A DNA stretch of 64,000 bases from a virus (Duplodnaviria; Caudoviricetes): positions 1 through 64,000 of IMG/VR virus record IMGVR_UViG_3300027858_000004; one strand, written 5' to 3'. This document shows, piece after piece, positions 6,596 through 25,256 of this stretch. The notes under the pieces are model-generated. The model did no database searches. It saw nothing but the letters and a program-made list of their open reading frames with translations, and was not told the DNA's origin. Numbering within the stretch: the stretch's first letter is position 1; every line of letters starts with the position of its first letter. Both the position numbers and the translations under genes were made by a program.

Positions 6596-6609
6596 GAAGG
6601 GGTGTTATC

Positions 6610-6879: not shown

Positions 6880-6923
6880 ATTATAATTAGATGGTAAAGG
6901 AATATTAATAAGGAGGCTTTACG

Positions 6924-7301: not shown

Positions 7302-7321
7302 ATCAGTAAAAGTTTACTTTT

Positions 7322-7624
7322 ATGAAGGAGGTAAGAATTATTATGAAAACATTCAGTAAATTAAGACAAGAATATTTAAATAAAGGTTTAAATTTAGCAT
7401 ATATAAGAAGTGGTAAAAAATATTCAATATCAATCGTTAATGTGCCATTTGTAGTAGAAGGGATTGAACATGAAACAGGCACTTGCCAACTAACAGGATA
7501 CTATAATATCTATGACAAGGCGCAATTGCAAGATGTGGATATGATGTTTGAAAGAGTTATTAATTCATACAAAGAGCAATATGCAACCAATGAAACTATG
7601 TTATCTTATGTAGATAATATTTAA
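7322..7624 (+). CDS. hypothetical protein
   Basis: AAGGAGG RBS (real start probably 7343); bounded by sites 7306 and 7624. Confidence 0.65.
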   Translation: MKEVRIIMKTFSKLRQEYLNKGLNLAYIRSGKKYSISIVNVPFVVEGIEHETGTCQLTGYYNIYDKAQLQDVDMMFERVINSYKEQYATNETMLSYVDNI

Positions 7625-7706
7625 TAAAAACTGAACTTTATTAAATTAGTTATTGACAAATGATATATCGTGTGCTATAATTAACTTATAAGATAAGAAA
7701 AGGAGA

Positions 7707-8546
7707 ATGATAAATATGATAGCAATTAACTTTGAACAGACGGTTAAAAATTTCTTGGAAGGTATTACTGATTATGAAACTCTAGATTTATCAGAAATAG
7801 AAGTGGATGTTTTAATTCAACATGTTGCAAACGAACTAGAAGGATATGAAGATATTGAGCAGAGCAATGTGGAACGTGAGATAAACATCTATCTTCAAAA
7901 TACAGGATTCACTTATGACGATGAGGCAGAAGCGTGGGAATTGGCAGAGAAAGTAGATTATCCTCACTATAAAGAAATGTACGTTTTAAAATATAACATG
8001 AAAGAACTTGCTTTTGACACGATAGAAAAGGCAGAGGCTTACATTAAGGAAAATGATGTTGCATACCCCGAAGTAACTCTAAGCGATGTTAAATATACAA
8101 ACAGACATAGCTTTGAAATTATACAGGACAATGAAACATTTGAATATGAAAAAGGAAAGTTAGAAAAAGTGGAAGATATGAAATGTAACATTTGTGAAAC
8201 TGGGGAAATGGAACATAAACAACTGAAAAAAACTCATGTGTATATCTGTGTAGAGTGTCCTAATGTTCAACTAGAATATTCTTTCTATGAAGATATCGAA
8301 AACTTGTCAGCTTACTTGCGTGGGGAATTAGAGCCTTTGACGGAAGAAGAGCAAATGGAATATATTTTAGCAGAGTTTCTTGGTTTCCATAGTTACGATG
8401 GAAACAGTGAAAAGCTATCTCATGAAGTTAAATTATTAATTAACAACAATGAAGAGATACATGCAAATGTTTCTGAAACCTACCGATTAAATGGTAAACA
8501 AGACGAGCTAATGGAAAAAGTAATCGACTCTCTTCTAATTCGATAA
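7707..8546 (+). CDS. acidic multi-domain protein with Zn ribbon
   Basis: CNIC...CVEC motif; promoter at 7653. Confidence 0.75.
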   Translation: MINMIAINFEQTVKNFLEGITDYETLDLSEIEVDVLIQHVANELEGYEDIEQSNVEREINIYLQNTGFTYDDEAEAWELAEKVDYPHYKEMYVLKYNMKELAFDTIEKAEAYIKENDVAYPEVTLSDVKYTNRHSFEIIQDNETFEYEKGKLEKVEDMKCNICETGEMEHKQLKKTHVYICVECPNVQLEYSFYEDIENLSAYLRGELEPLTEEEQMEYILAEFLGFHSYDGNSEKLSHEVKLLINNNEEIHANVSETYRLNGKQDELMEKVIDSLLIR

Positions 8547-8638
8547 TAAAAGTTGAATATTATTAAGAAATACTTATTGACATATTCTGTTTAGTATGCT
8601 ATAATTAGTTATAAGCTTAAGGAAGAGGTTGATAGCAA

Positions 8639-8884
8639 ATGAAATTTAAAACAGTATATCTTGATAAATGGGACAATGACTTACAGGATTCACCCAATCG
8701 CATTAAAGGGGTGAATGAGGTTATAGAGGTTGTAAGGCAAGAGGGAGGTTGTGAGGTCTCTTTTGATTACGAAGGAAGAACAAGGCATATGTCAGCATCT
8801 GAAAACTTTGCGAAAATGCTACCTGAAGACTTCAATTACAATATTGGCTATAATTACGAGTTTACGATTACTCTTAAGAAATAA
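8639..8884 (+). CDS. hypothetical protein
   Basis: ORF after promoter at 8577. Confidence 0.7.
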   Translation: MKFKTVYLDKWDNDLQDSPNRIKGVNEVIEVVRQEGGCEVSFDYEGRTRHMSASENFAKMLPEDFNYNIGYNYEFTITLKK

Positions 8885-8942
8885 GGATGGTGGAAGTAGA
8901 TTAATTCTACTTCCTAATTCCATACATAATGGAGGTAACACA

Positions 8943-9152
8943 GTGGGCAGAATAAACTATTCTTTAGGACACAAATACATAAATCAGTTTGATAAGAGAA
9001 AACAGGCAGAAATTATTATTGATATTGTTAATGCACTAGTTGAGATTGACCATGTGGATGATTTGCAGAGCTATTTAAATGATGCACTTGATAGTAGACT
9101 GGGAGACTTAATCGATTTAATAGACATAGAAAAACACATGATAGAGAATTAA
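8943..9152 (+). CDS. hypothetical protein (start revised from 8751)
   Basis: GGAGG at 8931 before GTG 8943. Confidence 0.6.
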   Translation: MGRINYSLGHKYINQFDKRKQAEIIIDIVNALVEIDHVDDLQSYLNDALDSRLGDLIDLIDIEKHMIEN

Positions 9153-9246
9153 TTTTAAACTATCTATTGACAAATAAAATATAGTGTGTTATAATTATAT
9201 TATAGTAAAGAAGAGGAAAACAAAACAATCAGAATGGAGCTTACAT

Positions 9247-10179
9247 ATGAAAATAGATGACTTGAAAGCCAAAGTATTAAAAGCAGAAGAAAAGGTTGAA
9301 AAATGTAAGAAGACGATTGAAAGACACGAAAAGCAAAAGATTAAAAAAATTGATGCACTTGTGAAAAAAGGAATTAATCTTGTAGGATTAAATAAAGAGG
9401 ATGTAGAAGAAATTCAATTTGAACATCGTGGAACAGATGAATCATGGGAGATATCTGAAGTGAAGTTCAAACTGGAAGACATTAAAGGTGCTACAAGAAA
9501 ACTATCCGATGCAGAGACAATCCTAAACAACTGGAAGAATAAGCTTGATGCCGAAATAGAAAAAGATAACTTCATTAACAATAGTGTTCCACAGGTTATC
9601 AAAGACTTCCTAGAAGAGTGGAAAAACAATGCTTATGAGTGGCACTTAAGAAAATATGATGCATATGTAGAGTTCCTTGAAAAGCTAAAGACCGATAAGC
9701 TTGAAGCCATCATTGAGTGTGTTAAAACGTTTGAGGTGTATTCTCATCTATTAAATGAAGATGGAGAAGTTAAAAATACAGATGAGTATTCTTTAATAAA
9801 CGTTCGACCAAGTGGCACTGTGAAAAACTTCTTAGAAGAAAAGAAATTAGATTATAGAAGTATTGACCAAAGAAAGAAAAACTTTGGTGGAGCTATTATT
9901 CAAAAGATGCATGAAATTAGAAGCAAAGAAGAGAGAGAGCAATGGATTAACAATCAATTGGAAAATGAAAAGAAATCAAAAATGATTGACTTAATCACTC
10001 GTATTAACGGTATTGTAGGTACTATTACGGATGCTTCAGAGTTGCGTATAAGCGTTAAAGGGAATTTAGATGGATTCATTACTGGAACAGACGGAAAAGC
10101 TAAAATTGAAACAGTGGGCGCAGGTGGTTACAATATTCAATTATTTCACTTTAGAACATTGGTACATGAAGTGAAATAA
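9247..10179 (+). CDS. conserved phage coiled-coil protein (start revised)
   Basis: C-terminal GNLDGFITG...ETVGAGGYNIQLFHFRTLV motif; ORF-track start overlaps the promoter. Confidence 0.8.
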   Translation: MKIDDLKAKVLKAEEKVEKCKKTIERHEKQKIKKIDALVKKGINLVGLNKEDVEEIQFEHRGTDESWEISEVKFKLEDIKGATRKLSDAETILNNWKNKLDAEIEKDNFINNSVPQVIKDFLEEWKNNAYEWHLRKYDAYVEFLEKLKTDKLEAIIECVKTFEVYSHLLNEDGEVKNTDEYSLINVRPSGTVKNFLEEKKLDYRSIDQRKKNFGGAIIQKMHEIRSKEEREQWINNQLENEKKSKMIDLITRINGIVGTITDASELRISVKGNLDGFITGTDGKAKIETVGAGGYNIQLFHFRTLVHEVK

Positions 10180-10188
10180 TAATCAAAG

Positions 10189-10212
10189 GTGACACTCTTA
10201 ACAGGGTGTCAC
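10189..10212 (+). terminator. hairpin
   Basis: GTGACACTCT-TAAC-AGGGTGTCAC. Confidence 0.55.
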
Positions 10213-10302
10213 ACATAAAATATATTTATAAATAGTTATTGACAAATACATAGTAATGTGCTATAATTAAGTTATAAGTAAGAAGAAAACAAATGACAAG
10301 CA

Positions 10303-12541
10303 ATGAAGGAGGAAGGTATAATGGAATTTACAATTGATTCAAGTTTAAAAATCATAAAAGATGTTGAAGGGGCAAGAAAAGTAATAGAAAGAATTACAGA
10401 AGATAACACTCTAAGAATAGAAATTGAGAGTGGGGAGATTGCAGAATTTGCATATAGCAAAGAATCTCAAAGCACATTTTCAAGTGGAATAGGTATCACC
10501 TATTTAAATAGCAGCTCTACCCCTTTCAATACTATTCCAAACCTATATGACAAGGAAACTGCAAGTAGATTGCTCTATGCTAACAGAAGAGCCTACAACA
10601 AGAAATTTAAATAATAGGAGAGATTAAAGTGAATAAAATCAAAGCGATAGATGTATTTAATTGTAATAATGTATTCCCAAAACCATTTCATGAGTGTGTG
10701 GAGATTGCTAAAAGTGTGGGATATTCGTATATGTCTTTTAACACTATGGTGGTTAGTGTGGATGCTAATAGCACATCAGATTATATTTGTTTAGAAAAAG
10801 ACTTAGCAGTATAATACGTGTCTTTTATTAAAAGAATGGAGGAACAATGATATGGAAGAAATCAAAATCATAGGTTACTTTGTTGATAAGGATGGAGACA
10901 AATCAATACCCAGTGACGTATTCGTTGCGATTGATGAAGTGGCAGATTTTAAAGGCAATTTGACAATTTATTGCACAATTGGTCAACATGGTAGTGCTAG
11001 TTTAGAATATATTAAGGAATGCGAAGAAATTACAAAAAAAGAGTATATTGAAGCTAGTAGAGGTCTTTATACACCTGTTGAATATATTTAATAAAAAAGG
11101 AAGGGGGAAATTAAATGAGTATCAAAGAACAACTATTAAATTTGGGGATTAATGAAACTGAAATTGATACACATGAATCTGATTTATATGTTTTAGTCAA
11201 TGACATTTCTAAAGAATGGCTTTCAACGTATGAATTTAAAAGCATTGTTTACATGTTTAGGTCGGAAATTGACAATAAACTTTGGTACGATATTCCGTTC
11301 GGTTACATGAATGAACATTATGAAAATAGATTTAATTTGTGAGTTTATAGGAGGTTATTCTTATGGAAGAAGTTATAATGAAAGACGGTTTTTTGAATAG
11401 CTTAGACTTTGCACTAGAACAATTAGAAAGACAGTCGGAGTTATTTGAAGAGGCAGAAATGAATGCTGAAAGAATTAGAACTGATACCTTAATAAGAGAG
11501 TTAAGACAGGTTATAGATAAATCTGAAAGATTGGTTTACTTTGTAAATAATGGATTTGATAAAATGTGATATTTATTAAAAAAGAGGGGTGACTATATGC
11601 AAAGACTTGACATTGAAACGTGGAAAAATATATTTAGGAACATACGAGAAGCACAGGAAGAGCAAGAAAAAGAAGAAGGTATAGAAGAGCTGATTAGAGA
11701 TGGTGTAGTTGAAAGAATTGATGTTGAGGTAACTTGGTTAGAAACTGACGATGAGTGGTGTCTATGTAGCGAATACGAGCTATTTGAAGATGGTTTTAAA
11801 ACAGAAGAAGAAGCAATGGAGCGTTTGAAATATCTAGAAAATATTTTACTGTGATTGATAAATTGCGACTTTTATGAAAATTGAATGGAGGGTTAAAATG
11901 GCTATTTACAAAAGTGGAGAAGCAATCGTTAAATTTAGTTTATTAAAAACTACCGACACTAGAAAGCTTTATAATTTTATTGTTAATATACAAGGCAATG
12001 AGGATTTTGTTTTTAACGGTGAAGATTATTCATGTCCTATTAGTTGGTCTGATGAACAAATTGCAAGTGATATGTTTAATTGGGCATTGGATATGTCAAT
12101 GGAGGGCGACTTAGACCTTTTGAATGCTATTGCTTTCAATGAGTATGTGGGCAATGAGAATACACCTTTAGTTGAACAAATTTAATAAAAAGCTGATATT
12201 ATGAAGGAGGATGAGGAATGAAGTTTCTACATGGCATATCAATAGCAATATTATATTTACTTGGTATTATTAAGGTTTTTGGTGGAATTGGAATTCATCT
12301 TTATACAGTATATCTATTTTTCATAGTTCATGGTGTATTAGGTGGAGCGATTTCATTATTTTTACCAGTGTTATCGCAAATTTTTATGGGGTTTAAATTG
12401 GTTTCTTATTATGGATGGAATACTCTTTATCCAATGATGTTAATAGCTTATGTGTTAGTTCATATATTGAGCTTTGTGTTCGCTTTAATTGTTACATATG
12501 CTGAAGATAAAGCTATAAAAAAATCACTAATTAAAAGCTAA
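10303..12541 (+). other. Operon of 8 small hypothetical ORFs (10303, 10629, 10852, 11115, 11363, 11597, 11874, 12218; the last is a membrane protein)
   Basis: Each has an RBS; one promoter at 10239; several junctions carry the 18-bp palindrome. Confidence 0.75.
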
Positions 12542-12670
12542 TTTGTAGAAAAATCATACTTCATAGCTTCATAATTAATTGAAGTATGATTTTTAAAAAA
12601 TATTTATTGACATATACATGTTGGTGTGCTATAATTAAGTTATAAGTAAGGAACACATAAAAGAAAGAGG

Positions 12671-13288
12671 ATGATGAATATGTCAAAGTTTGAAAATTAC
12701 TATAATCATGTGAATGAAGAAGCAGAAGGATTTGTAGGACAATATCTAGAAGATTTCATACACGACATTTCAAACGGAAGTACGGATGTAGACAGTCTAT
12801 TAGACGATGATGGAAAGTTACATGAGTACTGTGACCAACACTTTGACTTAAGGGATGCAGTAGAAATCTTAGAACAGTCTAATAATGTTGAAGAAGATAG
12901 TGGCTTATGGGAAAGCTTAAGCCCTATAGAAGCAGTTGAATCAATGGGATTTTGGACATTTAAAAACGATATGCGAGATGCAGTAAGAGAACAGTTGGAA
13001 GATAAATTAGAAGAAAAGAAAACAGATTTAGAATCAGAATTAGAAGACTTGGAGAAAACAAAATCAGAAATAGAAGAAAAAATGGAAGAATTAGAAAATG
13101 AAAGAGATGAGTTGGATGAGCTAGATGAGATGGACGAAGATGAACAAAAACGTTATGATGAGATTGAGACTAAAATTGGGGAACTAGAAAAAGAAAGGTT
13201 AGATGAAAATGAAGAGGATATTGAAGATGCTATCGAAACAATGGGATATACAATAGATTATTTAGATGAGGCAATAGACTCTATCTAA
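12671..13288 (+). CDS. second Ocr-like acidic protein with coiled-coil tail
   Basis: LHEYCD...EEDSGLW resembles Ocr LHDAIH...FEDSGLM; extremely D/E-rich. Confidence 0.5.
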   Translation: MMNMSKFENYYNHVNEEAEGFVGQYLEDFIHDISNGSTDVDSLLDDDGKLHEYCDQHFDLRDAVEILEQSNNVEEDSGLWESLSPIEAVESMGFWTFKNDMRDAVREQLEDKLEEKKTDLESELEDLEKTKSEIEEKMEELENERDELDELDEMDEDEQKRYDEIETKIGELEKERLDENEEDIEDAIETMGYTIDYLDEAIDSI

Positions 13289-13328
13289 ATCAGTAAAATC
13301 TACTTTTTATTAAATTGGAGGAATTAAG

Positions 13329-13514
13329 ATGGATAAATATTATGAAGTAGCAATTTCAGTTGAACAAGTTTTTAGTTATAAAGTAAAAGCTAAAAATCCA
13401 ATTGAAGCAGAAGAAAAAGCAGTAAACACACTGAAAAGAGAAGAAGACTATGCGGTGATTTTGGATTCAGATGGAGCGATTGAAGAAATTACAGAAGATG
13501 AATTTTACGATTAA
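13329..13514 (+). CDS. small acidic protein
   Basis: GGAGG RBS; VKAKNPIEAEEKA motif; bounded by sites 13293 and 13514. Confidence 0.7.
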   Translation: MDKYYEVAISVEQVFSYKVKAKNPIEAEEKAVNTLKREEDYAVILDSDGAIEEITEDEFYD

Positions 13515-13551
13515 TAAAATATCCATATTATGAAATAGGAGATGATAAAAA

Positions 13552-13920
13552 ATGACAACATTCTTAGAAGCAACTAGACGATGGGTTAATGAGTGGAATG
13601 CTATTCCTACTGATGCAGTCAACATTTTAATGAATCATGACATAGATTCTAATGGGGATAGCTATGAAATAACAGAAGAAAGAGAAACCGTTTATGGATA
13701 TCCTGTAGGATGGGGAACAATGTGGACTTTTGGCGAGTCTTTAGACAGTGATTGGGCAATGGAAAATAAAGAAATACTAGAGAAATGTGGGGTAGTTGCA
13801 TACTACACTGAGTCTTTAGGGGTTGTTATTGGTATTGACGGTGGAGGCTACGACTTTTATGACCAACATTGGATTCCACTATATAAGGCTAGAGGCTTAC
13901 AGTGGCATAGTGGAGAATAA
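13552..13920 (+). CDS. conserved phage hypothetical protein
   Basis: WGTMW...GIDGGGYDFY..HWIPLY motif. Confidence 0.75.
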   Translation: MTTFLEATRRWVNEWNAIPTDAVNILMNHDIDSNGDSYEITEERETVYGYPVGWGTMWTFGESLDSDWAMENKEILEKCGVVAYYTESLGVVIGIDGGGYDFYDQHWIPLYKARGLQWHSGE

Positions 13921-14042
13921 ATTAACTTAGATGTATTTTAGGAGGGGAATAATAATTCCTTTCCTAAAAGATAGTTATTGACATTTACATAAGTATGTGC
14001 TATAATTTATTTATAGTAATAAAGAGAAAGAGGCTGATAATT

Positions 14043-14567
14043 ATGGATTACTCATTCAACGGAATTACAGGACAAGTAAACACATGTTACTTAAAAGCTG
14101 AATGGATAGGATTTGATTCAGAAGAGTTTATGTTCACTAAGAAAACGTATGAGCATAAAGAGGAAGGATTAAGCTTTAAATATCTATATGCAGTATCAGT
14201 CACTAATGTTGGGGACTCCAATGGAGAAGATTTGAATTTGGTTACACTAGAGCTAGTAGTGGATAAATCATCCCTTGCGCCAAAGGTCTTAGAATCAATT
14301 TTAGATTCAAGTGGTTGTGATTCTATTGATGAGATTGATAATTGGAATATCATAGCAGAAGGTGGTAGCTCTATTATCATGGGCGAGGAGCTTGTTGGTG
14401 AAGATGATTTAGAGAAGACTATTATAGGTGCAATGGCTACTGTAAGGTCAATAGACAGCATGAGAGGATTCTTTATTGATAAACCCATGAACAATTTTGG
14501 AATGACAGGTTGGGACATCATTAAATATTCAATTGGGAATAAAGAAGAGCTATTTGAAATTAAATAA
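14043..14567 (+). CDS. hypothetical protein (start revised)
   Basis: AGAGG RBS; ORF-track start lies in the promoter. Confidence 0.7.
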   Translation: MDYSFNGITGQVNTCYLKAEWIGFDSEEFMFTKKTYEHKEEGLSFKYLYAVSVTNVGDSNGEDLNLVTLELVVDKSSLAPKVLESILDSSGCDSIDEIDNWNIIAEGGSSIIMGEELVGEDDLEKTIIGAMATVRSIDSMRGFFIDKPMNNFGMTGWDIIKYSIGNKEELFEIK

Positions 14568-14648
14568 ATATTAATAAATAGTTATTGACATATCATCTTT
14601 AGTGTGCTATAATTAATTTATAAGTAAGAAACACACAAAAGAAAGAGG

Positions 14649-14924
14649 ATGATGAGAATGAAAAAATCAGACTTCGAATTTAAATGTGATAGATGCACAG
14701 ATGGAAAAATGGAAAGATACGGACACATTGATAATGGTATTTGTTATAAATGTAGTGGTGTTGGTAGATTAATGTATAATCCACAACCATTTGGAGTAGA
14801 AGAAAAGTTGAATCAATGGTCTGAACAAGAATACTGGGAAATTCAAGCAGAACAGGAAAAAGAACTTAATGCACAAAAGGATTACTTTGAGTATGTAGTA
14901 AACGATGGTGGGTATGCTTGGTAG
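14649..14924 (+). CDS. DnaJ-type Zn-finger-like small protein
   Basis: CDRC.DG...CYKCSGVG. Confidence 0.65.
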   Translation: MMRMKKSDFEFKCDRCTDGKMERYGHIDNGICYKCSGVGRLMYNPQPFGVEEKLNQWSEQEYWEIQAEQEKELNAQKDYFEYVVNDGGYAW

Positions 14925-15007
14925 TTGAGAATGGGAAGGGGTTCCTTCCCTAAAGTAAAGAATCAGTAATAACGATATTTTATTAAAACTCGAATGGAGG
15001 AAATTAA

Positions 15008-15825
15008 ATGCACTATATAATGGTATGGATACATGAAGAAGAAAAATGGTATTACTTCATAAATGATTTTGATTCAAGTCAATTCCCTAACGGATATGTA
15101 GATTATTATATTGAGGTGAACAATGGGGCAATTGTAAACGATAGTTGGGAATCTTCAAATGAAGGTGAGAAATTTATGGATTGCTATAACTCATCGTTAT
15201 GGGCAATTGCTTCTTAATAAAAGAACGATTGTATTAATTGTATAACAAAAAACTAAAAATAGAACGGAGACAATTATAATGACAATTAAAAATCTTTCCC
15301 AGTTTAAAAAGTGGTTAAGCAAAGGAAACAAAATTCAATTCTTAGAAAACACTATGAAACCAGAAATGGCAAACGGTCAAATTAGAGAGGTGAACATTGT
15401 ACAAACAAATAGCTTTACAACTTTAGTAGGCGAAAAGGATTCATGGTTAGAGTTTCCAAAGGCTAAAGAATTAATGTTTAATTCAGATGGAACTATTGAC
15501 TTTATTAATAAACATGATGGCGAAATGTGGTTAAAAATTAAACCATTAACATAATAAAAGTAACGGTTTTAACTTAGAAAGGAAGATGGCAATGGCACAC
15601 AAAATAGTTACTATAAACGGAAACAGATTATTTGAATTAACATATATGGGCGACAAACAGTTTTGCACAATTGAAAATGTAGGTGAGGACGAATATTATG
15701 CTTATAATCAAATGGGCGAAGGTTATTCTGTAGCAGAGCTAAACACAATTGAAATCGTTGAATTGATGACCACTGGCGAAGTAGAATGCAGTGTGGAACA
15801 ATCAAACCATTTAAACCACGAATAG
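15008..15825 (+). other. three small hypothetical ORFs (15008, 15279, 15586)
   Basis: RBSs present; separated by palindromic sites at 14966, 15217 and a 7-bp-spacer variant at 15554. Confidence 0.7.
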
Positions 15826-15919
15826 AACAAACAATAGGGATATAAAATTAGTTATTGACATATTACTGTTAATGTGCTATAATTTACTTATAGAAAGATA
15901 CAGAAAGAGGATGATACAG

Positions 15920-16297
15920 ATGGGTCTAGATATGTACTTAGTAAAAGAAAAAGAAGATGGCAAATTAGATTACACTAATGAATTAGCATATTGGAGAAAA
16001 GCCAACCACATTCATTCATGGTTTGTTAAAAACGTGCAAAATAACACTGATGAATGTATAGCTCATCAAGTCTCAGAAGAACAACTGGAAGAGCTATTAA
16101 GAGTGTGTAAAGAGGTATTAAAAGACCATAGTAAAGCTGATGAGCTTTTGCCCACACAAAACGGATTCTTCTTTGGTAGCACACAATACGATGAATATTA
16201 TTTTGGGGCTATTGAGGAAACTATAGAAACTATTGGTGGAATTTTAGATAACTTTGATTTTAAAAATGAGAAATTATATTATGACTCTAGTTGGTAA
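15920..16297 (+). CDS. conserved phage hypothetical protein (MGLDMY...YWRK family)
   Basis: MGLDMYL, AYWRKANHIHSWF, GFFFGS, YYDSSW. Confidence 0.8.
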   Translation: MGLDMYLVKEKEDGKLDYTNELAYWRKANHIHSWFVKNVQNNTDECIAHQVSEEQLEELLRVCKEVLKDHSKADELLPTQNGFFFGSTQYDEYYFGAIEETIETIGGILDNFDFKNEKLYYDSSW

Positions 16298-16389
16298 AAA
16301 TAAAATTAATTTATGGTTTCAATGCACCAAAAATATAGTATTATGGTAATGGTAAGAAAATACTAAAAAAGAGAGTGGGAGAAATGAGA

Positions 16390-16689
16390 ATGAGCAATCT
16401 ACTAGCTATGAAAGATTTATCTTCACAACAATTGGCAATGGTACAATCTGAGGTTAAAGGCAAAGAAAAGTCAAAAGGCATCGCATATGCACTATGGTTC
16501 TTTTTGGGTGCTTTAGGTGGTCACAGATACTATGTTGGCGATATTGGAATGGGTATTACAATGACACTGACACTAGGTGGATTAGGATTTTGGGCATTAA
16601 TTGATGTGTTCTTTATTGGTTCTCGAATTGAAAAGAAAAATGAGGATTTAGAATATAATACAATCCTAAAAGTAAAGGCAATAGCATAG
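16390..16689 (+). CDS. TM2-domain membrane protein
   Basis: KSKGIAYALWFFLGALGGHRYYVG TM2 signature. Confidence 0.85.
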   Translation: MSNLLAMKDLSSQQLAMVQSEVKGKEKSKGIAYALWFFLGALGGHRYYVGDIGMGITMTLTLGGLGFWALIDVFFIGSRIEKKNEDLEYNTILKVKAIA

Positions 16690-16692
16690 CTA

Positions 16693-16759
16693 ACTCGACT
16701 AAGCGAGTATAAACAGACATTTAGGCTTAGAGCGTTCCCTGTGAAAACGGGGAGGTTGT
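16693..16759 (+). ncRNA. Pistol self-cleaving ribozyme
   Basis: P1 ACUCG/CGAGU; loop CUAAG pairs with CUUAG (16726-16730); AUAAACAG linker; UUAG and AGCG conserved; P3 UUCCCUGU-GAAA-ACGGGGAG; G|U site 16755/16756; P2 ACA/UGU. Confidence 0.85.
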
Positions 16760-16790
16760 AAGACAATATAAAATTAGGGATGTAATAATT

Positions 16791-16886
16791 ATGTCGATTG
16801 AGCTGATAAAGTGTGGCTATTGTGGTGAAGAGGGTAATATAGAAGAAATAGAAAGTCATATTTGTGAAGATGAAGATGTCGAATAA
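16791..16886 (+). CDS. 31-aa Zn-finger-like peptide (not in ORF track)
   Basis: AGGGA RBS; CGYC...HIC; stop lies in palindromic site 16883. Confidence 0.5.
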   Translation: MSIELIKCGYCGEEGNIEEIESHICEDEDVE

Positions 16887-16978
16887 AATAATAATATTAT
16901 TAAATTAGTTATTGACAAATACACGAGTCATGTGCTATAATTTACTTATAGGTAAAAACAACAAAAAGAAAATGGAGC

Positions 16979-17386
16979 GTGATTAAATTGACAAAACAAT
17001 ATGTAGTATCATTAGATTCAATGTTCACAGTGAAAGCAAATAGTGAGGAAGAGATTCATGAGATTGCCCTTGCAAAGCTAAAAGAAATTTTGGTGTCGGA
17101 TATGATACAGTTTGCTTGGGAAGAGGATGACATTGAATTTCTAGAAGAAGATGAAGATATGATTAAATTTACAACTGACATTGGAGAAGAAGTAGAATTA
17201 ACAGATGAGCAATTAAGAACAGAAGCAAAAAGCATGATTGAATTTGCTATGAATGAAAAAGATTACACAATTGATGGAATCGATGCGAAAATGATAGCAG
17301 AGGATATTACAGGGATTTTTGGTAAACATGGTTTATCAGATAAAGCTTTGGAGATTATAGAAGAGCAATTGAATAGTTTTAAATAG
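16979..17386 (+). CDS. acidic hypothetical protein
   Basis: ORF after promoter at 16912. Confidence 0.7.
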   Translation: MIKLTKQYVVSLDSMFTVKANSEEEIHEIALAKLKEILVSDMIQFAWEEDDIEFLEEDEDMIKFTTDIGEEVELTDEQLRTEAKSMIEFAMNEKDYTIDGIDAKMIAEDITGIFGKHGLSDKALEIIEEQLNSFK

Positions 17387-17463
17387 ATATTGACAAAAAG
17401 AAATTAATGTGCTATAATTAGTTATAAGTTAATTAAACAAAACAAACAAATGGAGGAATTGAA

Positions 17464-17757
17464 ATGACAACAACTACTGAAACGAATGTACAAGATTTAA
17501 TGGAAGAATGGGAAGTATCGGAAAATGAAGTTAAACAGGTTGCAGAGCATTTTGAAGTATCAGTTGAAGACCTGTGTAGATATCAGGATGAAGATAATTT
17601 AAGATTACATTGTTCTTATGACGATTTCTTCACATGGATGCACGAAGACTCAGATGTTTCATCTCTAATTGAGCTATTGAGAGAAGGCAGCAATGGAATT
17701 AATGAAGAGCAAATTTACACCTTAAGTAATGAACAAGTAGTATTCATGTACCAATAG
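17464..17757 (+). CDS. acidic hypothetical protein
   Basis: GGAGG RBS; promoter at 17390. Confidence 0.75.
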   Translation: MTTTTETNVQDLMEEWEVSENEVKQVAEHFEVSVEDLCRYQDEDNLRLHCSYDDFFTWMHEDSDVSSLIELLREGSNGINEEQIYTLSNEQVVFMYQ

Positions 17758-17831
17758 TTACTATAACAGATTGCACAAATTAGAGCTGAGATTTTCAGCT
17801 CTACATACATAAAATTGGAGAGTGATTTCAA

Positions 17832-18191
17832 ATGGATAGAACAAAGATGATAGAGAACTTAAATAGACAATTACCGATGGCACTGGCTGAGTTTAATGAG
17901 CATAGTATTATCGATGATTGCTATAGATATATGATTAGCAATGAAATATCTGCCAATTACGATGAAGAGAAAAATACTGATATTATTGTTTCAATAAGCC
18001 TATATTATTTAGAGCCAGAAGGTGTTAAATTAGTAATGACTGGGATTGATGAAGTTGGTGAAGTAGACCTAATCAACAAGGCAGAGCCTACAGAAAAAGG
18101 CTTAGAAATGCTATTGGAACAGTTTAATACAATTGTCTCCAATAAAGAATATATAAGGGAAAATGCTTTAGAAACAGGATTCATGGGGTAG
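17832..18191 (+). CDS. hypothetical protein
   Basis: GGAG RBS. Confidence 0.7.
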   Translation: MDRTKMIENLNRQLPMALAEFNEHSIIDDCYRYMISNEISANYDEEKNTDIIVSISLYYLEPEGVKLVMTGIDEVGEVDLINKAEPTEKGLEMLLEQFNTIVSNKEYIRENALETGFMG

Positions 18192-18206
18192 ATTGGAGAT
18201 TATAAT

Positions 18207-18605
18207 ATGATTAAATATTTAATAAGAAAAGAGAAATATGATATTGAAGATGTTTTATCAAAAACACTTCTCTTTATGGATAGAAGAAAAAGTGACAAGG
18301 AAACAAAAGTAGACTACGATGGAGACCTAATGAAGATGGCATCTGACAGATATAAATGCTTTGTAAGTAGTGGAACAAAATGTGTAACCTGTGGAATCGA
18401 AGGGTCATATTTTGCAAAAGAAAGACATCAAAATGACAACGTGTATCACTTTAATCTGTATGCTTTAGGTGGAAACGGTGAAGAGGTGTTAATGACCAAA
18501 GACCACATTTTTCCTAAAAGCAAGGGTGGAAGAGACGAGGTTGTCAACTACCAAACAATGTGTTCTCCATGTAATAAGGAAAAAGGTGATAAAATAATTT
18601 CATAA
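18207..18605 (+). CDS. HNH endonuclease
   Basis: CVTC...TKDHIFPKSKGG...NYQTMCSPCN..K. Confidence 0.85.
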   Translation: MIKYLIRKEKYDIEDVLSKTLLFMDRRKSDKETKVDYDGDLMKMASDRYKCFVSSGTKCVTCGIEGSYFAKERHQNDNVYHFNLYALGGNGEEVLMTKDHIFPKSKGGRDEVVNYQTMCSPCNKEKGDKIIS

Positions 18606-18708
18606 AATAGTTATTGACATATAGAGTAATATGTGCTATAATTTAGTTATAGGTAAGAAGCACTCTAAAATGTATAATAAGATTAAGGTTGAAATGGGAG
18701 GAATTGTA

Positions 18709-19167
18709 TTGATAATTACTAAAGAAGAAATGATTAAAAAGTACGCTTCAAACGAATTTGAGAAAAACTATATTGCAGAATTAGGTGATGAAGTTTATGA
18801 GCAAGTAGCCGATACAATTGATTTTATGGAAGGTGACGGAAACTATGAAAACATATCATTTAATGAAATTTTAGAACAGGCATTAGTGGTTTGCGTTCAT
18901 ACTTATGATTTTGTTACATTCAATTTGATTGAAGAAAAGCTCCCCAATGCAAGTTACACTGTTTTACATTACAAAGAAGCGAAAAGTGATTGGGATATTA
19001 AAATGGACAACAAAGGTGATGTCTCTGTCGCTATTAGTATGTCAGATGAACACTATATAATTATGTCATTGCTTGAAACACTGGAAGAACTCACAGATTA
19101 CATGTTTGAACAGGGTGTGGCTAATAATGTTACCTTTGTAAATAATACAACTGGTGCAACCTATTGA
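18709..19167 (+). CDS. hypothetical protein (start revised)
   Basis: GGGAGG before TTG 18709. Confidence 0.65.
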   Translation: MIITKEEMIKKYASNEFEKNYIAELGDEVYEQVADTIDFMEGDGNYENISFNEILEQALVVCVHTYDFVTFNLIEEKLPNASYTVLHYKEAKSDWDIKMDNKGDVSVAISMSDEHYIIMSLLETLEELTDYMFEQGVANNVTFVNNTTGATY

Positions 19168-19230
19168 TATTAATAATGTTCTAATTTTATCACGAAAAAT
19201 GATAATATAAAATCAAAGGGGTCGTTGTAA

Positions 19231-19557
19231 ATGTTAGATATGCAACTAGTTAAATTAGATATTAAAAGAAAGTTTAATGAGTTAAAAAAGTACAATCCAG
19301 AAATATCAGATTTAACAATCACTAAAATAAATGTAGTAGGTAGTTACAATACAGAAAAGTATAAAGAAGGTAAAAGCGATATTGATTTTCAATTAATTAC
19401 AGATAATGAGCTACCTAGTTGGGCAGATATAAATAGTATTGTTGATTATATAAATAGTGAACTAATTGATAAATATGGGGAATGTGAAAAAGGAAATCTA
19501 ATTGATGTGGTAGCAATAAACAATACCTTCTTAGATGGTGAAGTATTTAAAGCGTGA
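19231..19557 (+). CDS. minimal nucleotidyltransferase (Pol-beta superfamily)
   Basis: VVGSY...SDIDF plus distal IDVV Asp. Confidence 0.7.
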   Translation: MLDMQLVKLDIKRKFNELKKYNPEISDLTITKINVVGSYNTEKYKEGKSDIDFQLITDNELPSWADINSIVDYINSELIDKYGECEKGNLIDVVAINNTFLDGEVFKA

Positions 19558-19594
19558 TAAAATGTTGATTTTAACTTAAAAGGAGGTACTACAT

Positions 19595-20696
19595 ATGACA
19601 ATAAGAGTAACTGAAGAGCAATATAAAGTTATTCAAGAATTATCTAATACAGAAGAATGGTTAAAGATGATGTTAGATATAAAAGTAGGATACTTTAAAA
19701 CGTCTGAATTAGTTAAAGCTTATAGAATAAAAAAATTAGAAGTTGCTAAAGAAGGAGAAAACACTCATATTTAAATAGAAATAAAAGGAGGAAATAAATT
19801 GTATATTATAAAAGTAAGTCAAAGCATGGATATTCCATTAATTTTCCGTTCTAATGCTGGATATACCGAAGTAGAAACACTTCCAGAAGCAATTGAAGTT
19901 TATACGGACTTAATTAATAAGTATCCTAATTCCTTAGATATTAAAATTTTTGAGTCAAGTGAAGTGGTTATGTCTAATGAAATAAAAGATGAAGCAATCA
20001 AACGTAAAGAAAAAGAGTATGATTTATTTATGAGGTTGAAAGAAATAGGATTGAGTGAAATATCTTATGTTGACATTAAAGATTTAAACGAGAAAATCTA
20101 TAGTGTATAATTGAGATAAAATCTATCTTTCATTAAGGGGGGAATATGTATGGAAGAAAAATATAGAATAAAATACAAGAATCTCAAGACAGGTAAAAAT
20201 TTTGATATCAAGTGTATAGAAAAGGTTTATCAAACAATACGAAAAATGGAGAAAAAAGGCGAAGCAATAATAGACTATGATGAAAGAAGCAAACGTTTTG
20301 AAAGTTTACTCAATAAAGATTTAGAGATAAAATGAGCATATTATAAAAAAGATTAGACACTTTTGCTTCAGTATACTAGAATGGAAGGAGGAATAATAAG
20401 GAAAGGGAAGAAAGAATATGAAATACGATACTAACATAAATAAGAATAACAATAGCAAGTCTTTTAAATATGACACCAATATTAACAGAATGACCAATAG
20501 CACTAAGAAGAAAGATGAATTTAGTACTAAGGGCGCTTTAATTTTTATCGGAGTAGCTCTTCTTATAGTCTTCATTGTTACTTCATTCAATAGCTCTCCA
20601 TCTTACTATGATAGTAATGATTATGACAGAGATGGAGACTACGATTTAGATGATGGTGTAAAATACTTGGAAGATAGCATTAACAGTCAAAAATAA
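19595..20696 (+). other. four small hypothetical ORFs (19595-19774, 19799, 20150, 20418; the last has a TM helix and DYDRDGDYD EF-hand-like loop)
   Basis: RBSs; palindromic sites at 19557, 20116, 20327. Confidence 0.65.
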
Positions 20697-20810
20697 ATAT
20701 ACGAGTGTCTATTGGAGTTTCAGTAGACATTTAACGAAAACTACATATTGACAAATAAATGGCGATATGCTATACTATATTTAGAGTTAAGAAAAGGGAG
20801 ATGGATGAAT

Positions 20811-21787
20811 ATGAATCAACAATTGAGTATCTACCAATTAGAACGTGTAACTTCTCTTATTGAAAAACACCTAGAAGGATTGAGTGAGTGGACTAGTGGA
20901 GAACATGATGAAGAGTATCGTGAGTACAGTGAAATTAACAAGACATTGAATGAGCTTATGAGTGTTAAGATTTCAGTAAATAAAAAAGATGTAGTGGAAA
21001 TACATGGCTATGTAGACCAATTAATAAGTAACGATAACGGTGAATTTGATATTTTTGGAAGTTCTTATCTATTGGTTCCTAGAGAGTGGGCTTTGAACGT
21101 GGTAATAGAACAAGGCTTCAAAGATTTAGAAGATTTCTTTTCTAGTTACAATTATGATGATACAATGGATTTGATTGACCTAGCAATTCAAGATGGTGTA
21201 TTACTGGGGACAGGAACTGGCTTACAACCACATCTTTTAGACGGAGGTAAATAAATGACACAGTGGAATTACAAAATAAACGGTGAAAGATTAAGAGAGG
21301 CAACACAAAAAGACGATGAGTGGGAAACATTGGTAGAATTAGATAAAGTGTTAAAGTCTTTTGCTCCAAAGATTAAAGATGAATACATGGCACAAGATTT
21401 TGAAGAGTTAATTGAAATAGTCGATAGTGAAGTTTTAGAGGGTAAGGATGCAATAGAGCAATTCTTAGAAGAGGAAGATGCACAAGAAGACCTACAGGAG
21501 CTTGTAAACGACAGACTTTCAGAGTTCTATGACTTATGTGATGGATGGCGAGTATGGATAACATTATAGTCTTTATATTATCATTTTTAAAAAGCTTGTT
21601 TACCACTAGTTTAATAGGAACATTGATTAATTTCATTTTGGCGACATATCTCTATAGAAGAGGAATTAAAAAACATGACACCAATCCTAATAGTCTAAGT
21701 GTGTTTATCCCTTCAATGTGTTTATTGTTCTTTACTGGGATTGTAGGGGTAATATTAGCTATAATTGTTTACAAAGATATAAATTAA
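20811..21787 (+). other. operon of three hypothetical ORFs (20811, 21255, 21545 membrane)
   Basis: Promoter at 20748; RBSs; adjacent or overlapping frames. Confidence 0.65.
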
Positions 21788-21855
21788 GTATTGACAAATA
21801 TTAATGTTTGTGCTATAATTTACTTATAAGCTTAAGAGGAAGAGAGATGATATAA

Positions 21856-22545
21856 ATGGAACTATCAAAAAACAACAATAATAGTAAAGTCTTAGAGGAG
21901 TGGGACACAGAGCCGAATGAGCTAAGATTTGAGCATAATGGTCTGAAGTGTCTTGTTCTTAGAATGGAACAATTGGGACATTTATGTGGGTATGTAGGAA
22001 TTAAAGAATATCCAGTAGACTTTGATGAATATTCAATAGATGTTCATGGTGGAGTCACTTATGAGTCTACAGTTGAAAATTCTTTTGGTGTTATGAAAGA
22101 TTACTTTGAAGACTGTAAACATGTTATTGGATTCGATGCGGCTCATTATATGGATATATCTCCAAAGATGGAGACAATGTTAAATAAGCATCTATATGGT
22201 GGAACATACAAGAATATGGCATATATGAAAGAAGAGACGATTAAACTTGCAGAACAATTAGCGAGAACTGAATCTGAATTTGTAAAAACCTTTAAAAACT
22301 GGAAGGGTGACTTAAACAGTTATTTACAGGTTGGAGACATTGTTGATGATGAGTTGCGCAATCACTTTATTAATGTTCTTCCTCCAATCACACACACAAG
22401 CAACTTAATTCAAATGGGAGAGCCTTATAATCATATTAATGGTGAAGCCATTTTTAGCACTTTGGAACGTGTGGGGGTAGAGTCAAACTGGGTTTATCGT
22501 GGAAATTGCTTTAAAGGAAGTACAGTCGATTACACAGATAAATAA
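21856..22545 (+). CDS. conserved phage protein (GHLCGYV/HGG.TY/GFD.AH family) fused to a second domain
   Basis: GHLCGYVG, DVHGGVTY, IGFDAAH motifs. Confidence 0.75.
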   Translation: MELSKNNNNSKVLEEWDTEPNELRFEHNGLKCLVLRMEQLGHLCGYVGIKEYPVDFDEYSIDVHGGVTYESTVENSFGVMKDYFEDCKHVIGFDAAHYMDISPKMETMLNKHLYGGTYKNMAYMKEETIKLAEQLARTESEFVKTFKNWKGDLNSYLQVGDIVDDELRNHFINVLPPITHTSNLIQMGEPYNHINGEAIFSTLERVGVESNWVYRGNCFKGSTVDYTDK

Positions 22546-22642
22546 GAGATTAAATTCTCTTATTTATTCTTAAGATAGTTATTGACAAGTATTGGTTAAT
22601 GTGCTATAATTAATTTATAAGTAAGAAACAAATGAAACGGAG

Positions 22643-22972
22643 ATGGTAAGAGTGAAAGAAAAAATTGAAATATACAGTAACGCAGATTTCAGAAAAATAG
22701 TTGCAGACTTTCTTACAGATAAAACAGATGGGGGTGCTGACGATGGCATAGTAAGAGAGACATTTAAGCTGATTGACATAGTTAAAGAAAAAATAAATCT
22801 TGGAGAAAGTAATATTATTCTTGAAGATATGAATGTATGGTGTGGAACATCTGATGTCGTTGATGCTATGCTAGAGCTATATGATTACAAGTGGTCTGAA
22901 AAACTATCAAAAGTCGATGACTATATACACGTTTATGTAAAGAAAGAAGAAGTTGACTCGCTATTTGAATAA
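22643..22972 (+). CDS. hypothetical protein
   Basis: ORF after promoter at 22582. Confidence 0.65.
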   Translation: MVRVKEKIEIYSNADFRKIVADFLTDKTDGGADDGIVRETFKLIDIVKEKINLGESNIILEDMNVWCGTSDVVDAMLELYDYKWSEKLSKVDDYIHVYVKKEEVDSLFE

Positions 22973-23145
22973 ATACTTATTGACAAAACAATAGTAATGT
23001 GCTATAATTAAGTTGTAGGTAAACCGATAAAAGTATAATATTATTTGAAGAAAAGGACAACTTTCATTGTTGTCGCAAGCTCATATTGAGACTATGCATT
23101 TGCGAGAGCAATGAAGTGAGCTTAAAAAAAGTGGGGGTGCAACAA

Positions 23146-23343
23146 GTGATTGAGATAGAAGATGACTTTGTTTATATTCATAAGATGGAATTAGATGATT
23201 TAAAAAGAGGAAAGCTATGTTTTGCATACTTGCAAGCAGAAGGAAAAAGCGAAGATTTTAATATAATACAATCATCATCATTAAGCTTTTTGTTTAAAAT
23301 AGATGAGAATAAATATGAAGTGGTAATTAATAATTCAATATAA
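23146..23343 (+). CDS. hypothetical protein (start revised) with structured leader
   Basis: GGGGGTG RBS before GTG 23146. Confidence 0.55.
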   Translation: MIEIEDDFVYIHKMELDDLKRGKLCFAYLQAEGKSEDFNIIQSSSLSFLFKIDENKYEVVINNSI

Positions 23344-23424
23344 AGTGTTATAACAATATTATAAATAGATATTGACAAATTAAGTGAAATGTGTTATACT
23401 TAGTTAGTAGTAAGGAGAGACAAC

Positions 23425-23997
23425 ATGAAAGCTTATCTTATCAACTTAGGGAAGTACAACGAAGGTGAGAGCATAGGTAATTGGCTCACGTTACCATATG
23501 AAGAAGAGGAATTGGAAAGCATTCTAATTCAAATCAAAGTCGCCACCATGACAGATGGTAAATTTTCTTTCGGCTATATAGAGAGAAATCAGATATATGA
23601 AGAGTTTGCCATTCATGGTTTTGAATCCGACAATGGAATTGAACTAGAAATATCAGAGTATGAAAGAATAGAAAGAGTCAATAACATCACAAAAGAAATT
23701 GTTACATTGGAAATAGAAGAATTAGAAATACTAAAGGCTTTCATCGGACTATATAATAACAATCTTGATAATGTGGAGATGGGGATTGAAGTAGTCCAAG
23801 AGAATAAGTACATTATATATCATGATTGCAATAATCCAAAGGATTTAGGATACACCTACATGCTTGTTACAAATCAACTAGATGGATTAAGCAATGAAGT
23901 TAAAAAGTATGTGGACTTTAAAAAGATTGGCAGTGACATTATGGAAGGTGGAACCTTTGTTCAAATGGAGAGTAAGTATATAGAGTTTATTCATTAA
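23425..23997 (+). CDS. ardA: ArdA anti-restriction protein
   Basis: YLINLGKYNEG..IGNWLTLP, EEFAIH, YVDFKKIGSD ArdA motifs. Confidence 0.85.
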   Translation: MKAYLINLGKYNEGESIGNWLTLPYEEEELESILIQIKVATMTDGKFSFGYIERNQIYEEFAIHGFESDNGIELEISEYERIERVNNITKEIVTLEIEELEILKAFIGLYNNNLDNVEMGIEVVQENKYIIYHDCNNPKDLGYTYMLVTNQLDGLSNEVKKYVDFKKIGSDIMEGGTFVQMESKYIEFIH

Positions 23998-24200
23998 GGC
24001 TCTATATACTTAAGTTATTAATTACTTAATACATGTTTAAACTTTTAAATAAAGGAGCATGATATGAATACATATAAAGAAGATTATCACATAAGGCAAT
24101 TTAAAATTAGTGACGAGAACATTTAATAGTGTTTTGGTCAGTGAGTTTAAAATAGATATATGTCGCAGAGGCTTATGGAAAATAAAAGGGGAAATATAAA

Positions 24201-25256
24201 ATGGAAAATTTAGTTATTTTAAAACAATCAGAAACCAATGCAAGTAAAATAATATCAAAATTTATCGACAAAAAAAAGGAGAAAAGTGACAATACTTCAA
24301 TTTCCTATAAAACAGACATTGTGCAATTTACACTGGAAGTGTATAATAAGACATTGGAACATGTTACCCATCATGATTGGAACAGACTAAACGAAGAAAC
24401 TTTTCTAGGTTACTATGATAAACTATATAAAGAGAAGGTTAATGGTAAGAAGAAATATAAAAACAATACCATTAACAGAAAGATTTCTTCTATAAAGGAG
24501 TTATTGCGATATCTAAAAAAGAACAAAATAATAACATCAGATATTTCATATTTAGATACACTTGATAAATATATTGATGATGCTGAATCAGTTGAACCAA
24601 TGCCCCTAGATGTTGCCTTACAATATGCAGAACACATCTTAAAGACAGAACGATACAAAGCATATGAGAAGTATTGTATAAGCTTACTTGCAATTGACAC
24701 AGGACTTAGACAGTCTGAGTTAATTAATCTAAAGGTGTCAGATTTTGTTTATGAGAAAGAATATGTAATTATACGAGGCAGAGGAAAAGGAAACAAGAAA
24801 TGGATAAAGAAAATAAGTCATGAGTTGTTTGCAAAGATATGTAAAATAGATAGCAATAGCGAGGGTAAAATATTTACTATAAGTACTAAAAACGTCATAG
24901 ATATGATGGCAAGAGCGAGAAAACAATTGAATCATGAGGGTAGAAAATATAGTTTCCACTCATTCAGAAAAACGGCAGTGACATTTGGATATAGACAAAC
25001 AGGAGATATTATGGAGGCAAAAAGAATTGCTAATCACAGTAATCTGAAAACGACTCAACTATATGTTGAAGAAGAGGATTATGGTATGACTGGTGCAATA
25101 TCAATTGGAGAAAACATTAATCCAAACCTTTATAAAGAAGTTCCTCATAAATTACTATTACAAGGATTAGAGCAACTTAGAAAAGACAGTCTCTTCTTAC
25201 TCAACATAGCAATAGACAAAATAGAAAAACAAGATACATCTATAACAGAAAACTAA
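24201..25256 (+). CDS. tyrosine recombinase (XerC/D-like; SPbeta YopP/SroD-like)
   Basis: Complete catalytic set: TGLR, GKGNK, HSFR, ANHS...TTQLY. Confidence 0.9.
   Translation: MENLVILKQSETNASKIISKFIDKKKEKSDNTSISYKTDIVQFTLEVYNKTLEHVTHHDWNRLNEETFLGYYDKLYKEKVNGKKKYKNNTINRKISSIKELLRYLKKNKIITSDISYLDTLDKYIDDAESVEPMPLDVALQYAEHILKTERYKAYEKYCISLLAIDTGLRQSELINLKVSDFVYEKEYVIIRGRGKGNKKWIKKISHELFAKICKIDSNSEGKIFTISTKNVIDMMARARKQLNHEGRKYSFHSFRKTAVTFGYRQTGDIMEAKRIANHSNLKTTQLYVEEEDYGMTGAISIGENINPNLYKEVPHKLLLQGLEQLRKDSLFLLNIAIDKIEKQDTSITEN

Follow-up and report, generated by a model that had tools for sequence, protein, structure and literature searches.

What does a self-cleaving RNA do when it lies inside a transcription unit of a phage? 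The roles of most bacterial self-cleaving ribozymes, pistols among them, are described as largely elusive in a 2019 review (PMC6765202), and the locus analyzed here poses the question in an unusually tidy natural form. The DNA studied, referred to as the window throughout, is a stretch of 64,000 nucleotides at the start of a virus record of 166,074 bp that has direct terminal repeats (IMG/VR record IMGVR_UViG_3300027858_000004). It holds a pistol ribozyme, the lone ribozyme in 166 kb, which is set between two perfect promoters, with a defined gene for a TM2-domain membrane protein upstream and a minimal open reading frame (ORF) of 31 codons downstream. Our analysis leads us to a reading that we consider fairly probable, namely that the ribozyme cuts the transcript of an early unit between G16755 and U16756 and in doing so gives the TM2 mRNA and the downstream RNA different fates. 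Pistols in phages of Firmicutes and ribozyme cutting of polycistronic phage RNA are both already in print, and the window pistol adds an ordinary member to a known class of ribozymes, in a setting typical of phages.

Identity and anatomy of the ribozyme

A cmscan search of the whole window with Rfam 15 matched the Pistol family (RF02679) to positions 16693-16760 on the + strand with a score of 70.4 bits, against a cut-off of 34.5 (E = 8.3e-11), and the match covers positions 1-68 of the 68 in the model, without truncation. Pistol was the one Rfam family above the gathering threshold in the 64-kb window, and it was still the sole match when the listing was extended to E = 1. The element was recovered again at 16693-16760 when the whole 166-kb record was searched with Rfam. 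No second Rfam ribozyme was found in that record, the rest of which (63901-166074) held only three tRNAs at the gathering threshold. An earlier note on this DNA, made from its letters, had read a pistol ribozyme here and had named a search with the Rfam pistol covariance model as one check; that search has now been run, and the full-length match bears the identification out. Judged by this alignment, 16693-16760 encodes a genuine pistol self-cleaving ribozyme.

All elements of the class can be followed along the + strand of the alignment. The P1 hairpin has 4 bp (4/4 pairs; 16693-16696 with 16705-16708), and the 5' strand of the pseudoknot comes from its loop (16697-16704). In pistols the pseudoknot joins the P1 loop with the junction connecting the 5' strands of P2 and P3, as described by Harris et al. 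(2015, PMC4604425), and here it is formed by 16699-16704 (CUAAGC) and 16725-16730 (GCUUAG) with 6/6 standard pairs. An A-rich linker, AUAAACA (16709-16715), is followed by the 5' strand of P2 (16716-16719 with 16757-16760), a helix of three Watson-Crick pairs (16717-16719 with 16757-16759) and an outer G.A. The P3 hairpin, which varies in length across the class, here (16735-16742 with 16747-16754) consists of 8 pairs, two of them G.U, and a GAAA loop (16743-16746), and it appears in every minimum-energy and centroid fold obtained by structure prediction. The predicted scissile linkage, G16755|U16756, occupies a two-nt junction (16755-16756) whose position is taken from the Rfam consensus alignment; Harris et al. 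(2015, PMC4604425) describe the junction between the 3' strands of P3 and P2, usually GU, as two nt, strictly conserved in length, and the holder of the scissile bond. The coordinates and elements given in the earlier note (P1, linker, P2, P3, the GAAA loop, and a cleavage site at 16755/16756) all agree with this alignment. The pseudoknot it had reported, CUAAG with CUUAG, is present as well, with six pairs where five had been listed.

To place this copy within its class, we used the Rfam upper-case consensus positions in place of the published 10 highly conserved nucleotides. The window pistol matches every one of them except model position 6, where U is changed to A, and an A at this position recurs in other pistols of the comparison set. 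Among 61 unique pistols, the window copy included, P1 has 4/4 pairs in 60, and all six inner pairs of the pseudoknot are kept in 54 despite 29 distinct loop strands, so that the pseudoknot covaries within the class. The linker reads AUAAACA in 20/61 and AUAAAUA in 26/61, and the junction is GU in 45/61. The P2 pattern of the window, an outer mismatch plus three pairs, is the commonest one (24/61), and an outer G/A occurs in 30/61; these P2 counts use fixed positions and are rough for sequences with insertions or deletions.

The closest chromosomal counterpart came from a species-level scan of prokaryotes (one genome each) for the window's version of P1 plus pseudoknot, which gave one match, in Lysinibacillus pinottii. 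The pistol in this chromosome (contig locus L146, 601-678) has a P1 and a pseudoknot identical to those of the window, and one P2 pair is changed on both sides, being A-U in the window and G-C in L. pinottii. It lies 3 nt past the stop of a 67-aa ORF and ~300 nt downstream of the end of an integrase-like gene, and it matches a provirus locus, L005.

Pistols are reported to be common near phage genes, prevalent in Firmicutes, and found in phage genomes (Harris et al. 2015, PMC4604425). According to the same source, the pistol of Lysinibacillus sphaericus cleaves at ~10 per min or faster at physiological Mg2+ and pH (PMC4604425), and pistol cleavage leaves a 2',3'-cyclic phosphate on the upstream product and a 5'-OH on the downstream product. 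Class membership thus predicts that the window pistol is very probably active as a self-cleaver.

The early transcription unit and its predicted products

The ribozyme lies within a region, 5000-24500, that has the appearance of an early or host-takeover region transcribed by the sigma-A polymerase of the host. We found 16 promoter-like sites in it, all on the + strand and all with 12/12 consensus matches (TTGACA-17/18-TATAAT) and an upstream TG, and each of them precedes one to a few small ORFs. Only two terminator-like sites occur on the + strand of these 19.5 kb, and none falls within 15500-18000. The host is most likely a member of the Bacillales, because the best relatives of a 697-aa window protein come from phages of Brevibacillus, Bacillus, and Lysinibacillus: Brevibacillus phage Sundance (60%) and Bacillus phage SP-15 (59%), followed by Bacillus phage Edson (50%), Lysinibacillus phage LC76P1 (49%), and Bacillus phage vB_BceM_WH1 (49%). 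A megablast search of 50,697 phage records found no relative of 14500-19500 at the DNA level.

The unit that contains the ribozyme extends from 15855 to 16912 on the + strand, in the order phrog_7971 ORF, TM2 gene, pistol, and 31-codon ORF. A perfect promoter of the sigma-70/sigma-A type (TTGACA-17-TATAAT with a TG and 12/12 hexamer matches; 15855-15883) most likely drives it. The first ORF (15872-16297; 141 aa as listed) matches phrog_7971, a phage protein of unknown function, with E = 3.7e-15 over residues 17-141, and its true start is probably further in, near 15914. It is followed by the TM2 gene (16390-16689), which encodes 99 aa from the ATG at 16390 in a frame that is open from GTG 16375. 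Its product matches PF05154 with 63.9 bits against a cut-off of 27.9 (E = 1.6e-17; profile positions 2-51 of 51), along with six PHROG families of unknown function. The protein collection carries the TM2 protein in this 99-aa form, and the TM2 protein and the 31-aa peptide are each a one-member cluster, on two contigs. The stop codon of the TM2 gene, TAG at 16687-16689, ends 3 nt before the ribozyme. The flanking layout in the earlier note therefore holds: the ribozyme starts at the fourth base after the TM2 stop, and the ATG of the 31-codon ORF (16791-16886) lies 35 nt past U16756. The next perfect promoter of the sigma-A type, found in the promoter scan at 16912-16941 (+), starts the following unit (ORF 16979-17386) and begins 156 nt past the predicted cut.

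We propose that the RNA would fold into P1, pseudoknot, P2, and P3 once position 16760 has been transcribed and would then cut itself at G16755|U16756 by internal phosphoester transfer, free of protein. Because members of the class cleave at the rates cited above, this self-cutting is expected to be co-transcriptional. A transcript begun near 15890 would be split into two RNAs. The upstream RNA would comprise the phrog_7971 ORF and the TM2 gene, and its 3' end would consist of the P3 hairpin, one nt, and a 2',3'-cyclic phosphate. The downstream RNA would start with a 5'-OH and an unstructured 35-nt leader, would include a weak ribosome-binding site and the 31-codon ORF, and would probably continue into the next unit. 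The two halves would then meet different fates in decay and translation.

The predicted folds of the two products differ markedly. In the 5' product, P3 is retained along with P1 or the pseudoknot helix, and a single nt follows P3 (-17.9 kcal/mol, z -2.3); the leader of the 3' product shows no more structure than shuffled sequence does (-6.2 kcal/mol, z +1.05). In bacterial mRNA decay, a 3' end that closes with a hairpin, has no tail, and bears a cyclic phosphate should resist 3' exonucleases. Since the stretch shows no terminator, the 3' end of the upstream product could take the protective role of a terminator hairpin, and the upstream half would most likely gain a 3' end that the unit otherwise lacks. 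The ends and structures of the predicted products thus make intercistronic processing the most likely function. We also considered that P3 or the leader might act as a switch by masking the ribosome-binding site; this is unsupported, as P3 is far more stable than its alternatives and the leader is unstructured.

The earlier note had suggested that the ribozyme uncouples the stability of the two cistrons. This is a reasonable suggestion, and it fits the promoter-bounded unit, the lack of a terminator-like site, the structured upstream 3' end as against the unstructured leader, and the class-wide placement described below. It has also been proposed in the literature already: the 2019 review (PMC6765202) cites an existing suggestion that ribozymes process polycistronic transcripts into RNAs of differing stability or translation efficiency, and the processing of long phage transcripts was proposed for clustered prophage hammerhead ribozymes by Perreault et al. 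(2011, PMC3088659).

Placement of pistols in phage genomes

Is the position of the window pistol peculiar to this unit or a property of the class? A pattern made from the conserved core of the window pistol led to 57 stretches of viral contigs, 55 of which were scanned with Rfam; the loci L025 and L050 were left out, since each overlaps another locus of its contig (L009 and L049). In 54/55 loci at least one pistol passed the cut-off, and the 67 matches comprised 64 of full length and 3 cut by the end of a locus. For these 64 other full-length pistols, we measured how far the ribozyme lies from the nearest upstream stop, counting ORFs of 40 codons or more, and from the next start preceded by a Shine-Dalgarno sequence. 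Sixty-three of them had an upstream ORF; the ribozyme start lay within -15 to +12 nt of its stop in 39, at a distance of 13-50 nt in 6, and farther off in 18. With identical contexts removed, 38/62 pistols lie -15 to +12 nt from the stop, where positions picked at random in these loci would give 14% (binomial P = 1.5e-17), and the stop is inside the ribozyme or touching it in 17 of the 38 (gaps of -14 to -1: 3+5+1+8). A start preceded by a Shine-Dalgarno sequence is found 20-50 nt past the cut in 20/62 when ORFs of at least 25 aa are counted (13% expected), in 18/62 with ORFs of at least 50 aa (8% expected), and in 12/62 with ORFs of at least 80 aa (4% expected). The 3 nt and the 35 nt of the window fall inside both ranges, and its layout is therefore the usual arrangement of phage pistols.

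The neighbors of these pistols vary. No Pfam family was found for 32 of the 36 ORFs that abut a pistol, and none of the 36 is a TM2 gene. Two to five pistols occur within about 3 kb in 8/55 loci. These arrays are set between consecutive small genes, with five pistols within 3 kb in L009 (601-2995) and three each in L037 and L060; the other multi-pistol loci are L011, L013, L022, L049, and L051. Other structured RNAs were seen close by: in L022 and L029 a pistol has a Twister-P5 ribozyme 0.5-1.4 kb away, a GOLLD RNA lies ~0.3-0.8 kb from a pistol in two viral contigs (L030, 275-690; L034, 793-1167), and a tmRNA gene ~0.4 kb from one in two more entries of the set (viral contigs L008, 1943-2355, and L017, 1943-2377).

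The survey yields a testable rule, according to which about six in ten phage pistols lie next to an upstream stop, about three in ten precede a close gene start, and arrays are frequent. In the literature searched, which excluded Weinberg et al. 2015 and supplements, we met no statement of a stop-codon placement rule for pistols. We speculate, and consider it possible but rather unlikely, that phage pistols as a class are modules that form 3' ends at the preceding stop codon, doing the job of a terminator hairpin, with a stable end that lacks a tail and bears a cyclic phosphate, without halting RNA polymerase; the cut would perhaps be tuned by translation of the preceding gene, as its terminating ribosome would sit on P1 and the pseudoknot. 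If this were true, the window would be a clean single-copy test case, being promoter bounded and free of a terminator, with a TM2 relative that has a true terminator at the same place.

The downstream ORF and the terminator comparison

The 31-codon ORF, taken from the ORF list (16791-16886, +), is acidic, contains a CxxC...HxC arrangement, and is an orphan. A weak Shine-Dalgarno-like AGGG can be read at 16776-16779, 11 nt before its ATG. A minimal start-stop pair, ATG-TAA at 16780-16785, immediately follows the AGGG, leaving 5 nt to the ATG of the ORF. The peptide matches no Pfam or PHROG family, has no tblastn match better than E = 6, a chance level, in 50,697 phage records, and has no paralogue in its own 166-kb genome. 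Compared with 1.84 billion representative proteins, it has no relative besides itself: at E up to 0.001 there were 4 matches, namely the peptide itself and short stretches of three long proteins (468-6411 aa), which we read as chance. Membership in a zinc-ribbon or zinc-finger family is not supported, as the peptide has no family and no relatives that keep the Cys/His pattern.

The TM2 gene has relatives in viral contigs at only two loci, L002 and L003 (52% identity), and in a tblastn comparison of 212 window ORFs with loci L002-L060 only these two were matched. At L003, the TM2 gene is followed by a 13-bp intrinsic terminator that begins 30 nt past the stop codon, which is the place of the pistol in the window. 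The TM2 relative there (2504-2881) is a stand-alone gene in an apparent temperate phage, beside ORFs that are HicA/HicB-like by translation. No pistol was found at L002 or L003, even to E = 1. A link between pistols and TM2 genes is accordingly rejected, since both TM2-relative loci are pistol free and 0/36 ORFs abutting a pistol encode TM2.

These features also bear on the most serious alternative, in which the 31-codon ORF is no gene and the pistol substitutes for a terminator. It would end the TM2 message and expose read-through RNA to a 5'-to-3' exonuclease of the RNase J1 type, and transcripts from the strong promoter at 15855 would thus be kept from running on in translatable form into the next unit. 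RNase J1 is reportedly the nuclease that degrades the 5'-OH product of glmS cleavage in B. subtilis. The terminator-free stretch 15500-18000, the next perfect promoter 156 nt past the cut, the unstructured leader of the 3' product, the orphan status of the 31-aa ORF, and the real terminator at the matching place behind the TM2 relative are all consistent with such an insulator, and pistols abut a stop codon (38/62) more commonly than they precede a close gene start (18-20/62). That a 5'-OH product can be removed in this way is illustrated by the glmS ribozyme, whose product is decayed by cellular RNases (cited in the review PMC6765202). However, starts 20-50 nt past the cut are 2.5 to 4 times enriched across the class, which argues that the downstream RNA is usually meant for translation. 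Other early units manage without a terminator or a ribozyme, with 2 terminator-like sites on the + strand in 19.5 kb, and the explanation would depend on which RNases the host has. We regard a terminator substitute as conceivable but doubtful, and we continue to favor cleavage that separates two RNAs with different fates.

Conservation and the remaining alternatives

No relative of its genome or of its unit was found to share the ribozyme. It was found in 0/5 of the nearest cultured phage genomes (Sundance, SP-15, Edson, LC76P1, and vB_BceM_WH1), in a search with a tool that does recover the window pistol. A link with the first gene of the unit was likewise rejected, as 0/49 records with phrog_7971 relatives hold a pistol (the 49 records derive from 50 of the 80 loci obtained for 152 relatives). 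Together with the two pistol-free TM2-relative loci, these absences would suit a neutral passenger, that is, a small element that is transferred sporadically and persists here since the cut is harmless. One Bacillus licheniformis plasmid has been described as carrying a pistol that plasmids nearly identical to it lack (2026 paper, PMC13269093), and the inconstant neighbors seen in the survey, with 32/36 upstream ORFs lacking a Pfam family and none encoding TM2, would agree with such mobility. Nevertheless, every helix of the window pistol is intact and the upper-case consensus positions are kept except for model position 6, and across phages the stop-to-start placement is strongly non-random, which is not expected of a neutral element. 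A passenger is therefore an unlikely explanation.

The nearness of the ribozyme to the stop codon raises the question of whether translation governs the cut. A ribosome terminating 4 nt before P1 might unfold P1 and the pseudoknot loop, and the cut would then report translation of the TM2 gene. A ribosome terminating there would be expected to have both P1 and the loop that forms the pseudoknot within its footprint, and the 38/62 pistols with a stop -15 to +12 nt from the ribozyme start, 17 of them with the stop inside or touching the ribozyme, are what such gating would need. But the class cleaves within seconds, so the cut may precede the first ribosome, and the tight packing of phage genes would give the same adjacency without regulation; we judge gating by translation to be quite improbable.

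Least probable is a circuit in which the cut is reversed, or the RNA joined or circularized, by the RtcB-type RNA ligase that the phage encodes (28733-29950, +; phrog_1075, E = 9.5e-140): the substrates of RtcB, a 2',3'-cyclic phosphate and a 5'-OH, are the ends made by a pistol, but RtcB occurs in just 1/49 pistol-bearing viral records (drawn from 50 of 57 loci), in 0/9 of those at least 90% complete, and in 0/49 control records, so that an association is rejected as a rule, the lone ribozyme of this genome offers no second cut to make a circle, and tRNA repair is the usual reading of RtcB in a phage that, like this one, has tRNA genes (three).

Several points weigh against our preferred reading, in which cleavage gives the TM2 mRNA and the RNA behind it different fates. 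The second "cistron" amounts to a 31-codon ORF that has no relatives and is preceded by a weak ribosome-binding site; it is perhaps not a real gene. The lack of a pistol in all five nearest cultured relatives implies that the function is dispensable at that distance. The comparison with a terminator represents one lineage, because L002 and L003 are near-identical. The P2 helix of the window holds just three Watson-Crick pairs, though this pattern is common (24/61). In the survey, the ribozyme does not abut a stop codon in 24/62 unique contexts, the loci were chosen by a pattern from the core of the window pistol itself, the ORF calls are crude, and the P values for context overstate independence because the survey rows are related. 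Lastly, we infer both the cleavage in vivo and which half it would stabilize or destabilize.

Other features of the genome

Several further genes and sites were observed in the record. A free-standing HNH endonuclease gene (18207-18605, +; PF14279/PF01844 and several HNH PHROGs) is located 1.4 kb downstream of the ribozyme. At 24201-25256, 25278-26597, and 26634-27638 (+), a phrog_5732 gene of unknown function lies between two integrase-like (tyrosine recombinase) genes, a pair that is unexpected in a 166-kb terminal-repeat phage with a virulent-looking early region. A gene at 49339-50415 (+) resembles nicotinamide-nucleotide adenylyltransferase (phrog_3462, E = 1e-79), an auxiliary function in NAD metabolism. 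The three tRNA genes are found at about 150,159-150,566 of the record, on the - strand.

Comparison with known systems

Measured against the pistol class as defined by RF02679 and the work of Weinberg et al. (2015) and Harris et al. (2015), the window copy shares the architecture of P1, pseudoknot, P2, and P3 and the GU site, and it differs in nothing structural; its P3 is short and has a GNRA loop. Its setting is also that of the class, with a phage of the Firmicutes type and small phage genes alongside. What sets it apart is that it is a single copy in a virulent-looking phage of 166 kb with terminal repeats, whose nearest cultured relatives are without a pistol.

The prophage hammerhead clusters described by Perreault et al. 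(2011, PMC3088659) offer the nearest parallel in arrangement, in that a self-cleaving RNA lies between short phage genes of changing identity in both. The proposal of those authors, that long phage transcripts are cut into mRNAs of the length of a single gene or operon, fits the window too (PMC3088659). The hammerheads belong to another class and come as paired or triple sites, whereas the window has one site, although other phage contigs carry arrays of pistols. The glmS ribozyme of Gram-positive bacteria shares with the window pistol the step of mRNA self-cleavage that leaves a product with a 5'-OH, and the decay of the glmS product by RNase sets expression (PMC6765202). In contrast to the pistol, which has no known ligand and is placed after a gene, glmS resides in a 5' untranslated region (UTR), uses the cofactor GlcN6P, and acts as a feedback switch; the two are not of the same family. 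Twister ribozymes in bacterial 3' UTRs (Felletti, Bieber and Hartig 2017, as cited in PMC6765202 and PMC5502269) are, like the window pistol, found directly after a coding region, and according to these sources they influence the expression of the upstream gene and the processing of polycistronic RNA. That work concerns another ribozyme class in reporter constructs, and the window concerns an early operon of a phage.

The intrinsic terminator is the system that the window pistol resembles most in position, for it sits after its TM2 gene as the terminator of L003 sits after the relative of that gene. Both leave an mRNA that ends in a stable hairpin with almost no 3' tail, as a prediction in the case of the window. 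Unlike a terminator, the pistol does not stop RNA polymerase; it would form the 3' end by self-cleavage and leave it with a cyclic phosphate.

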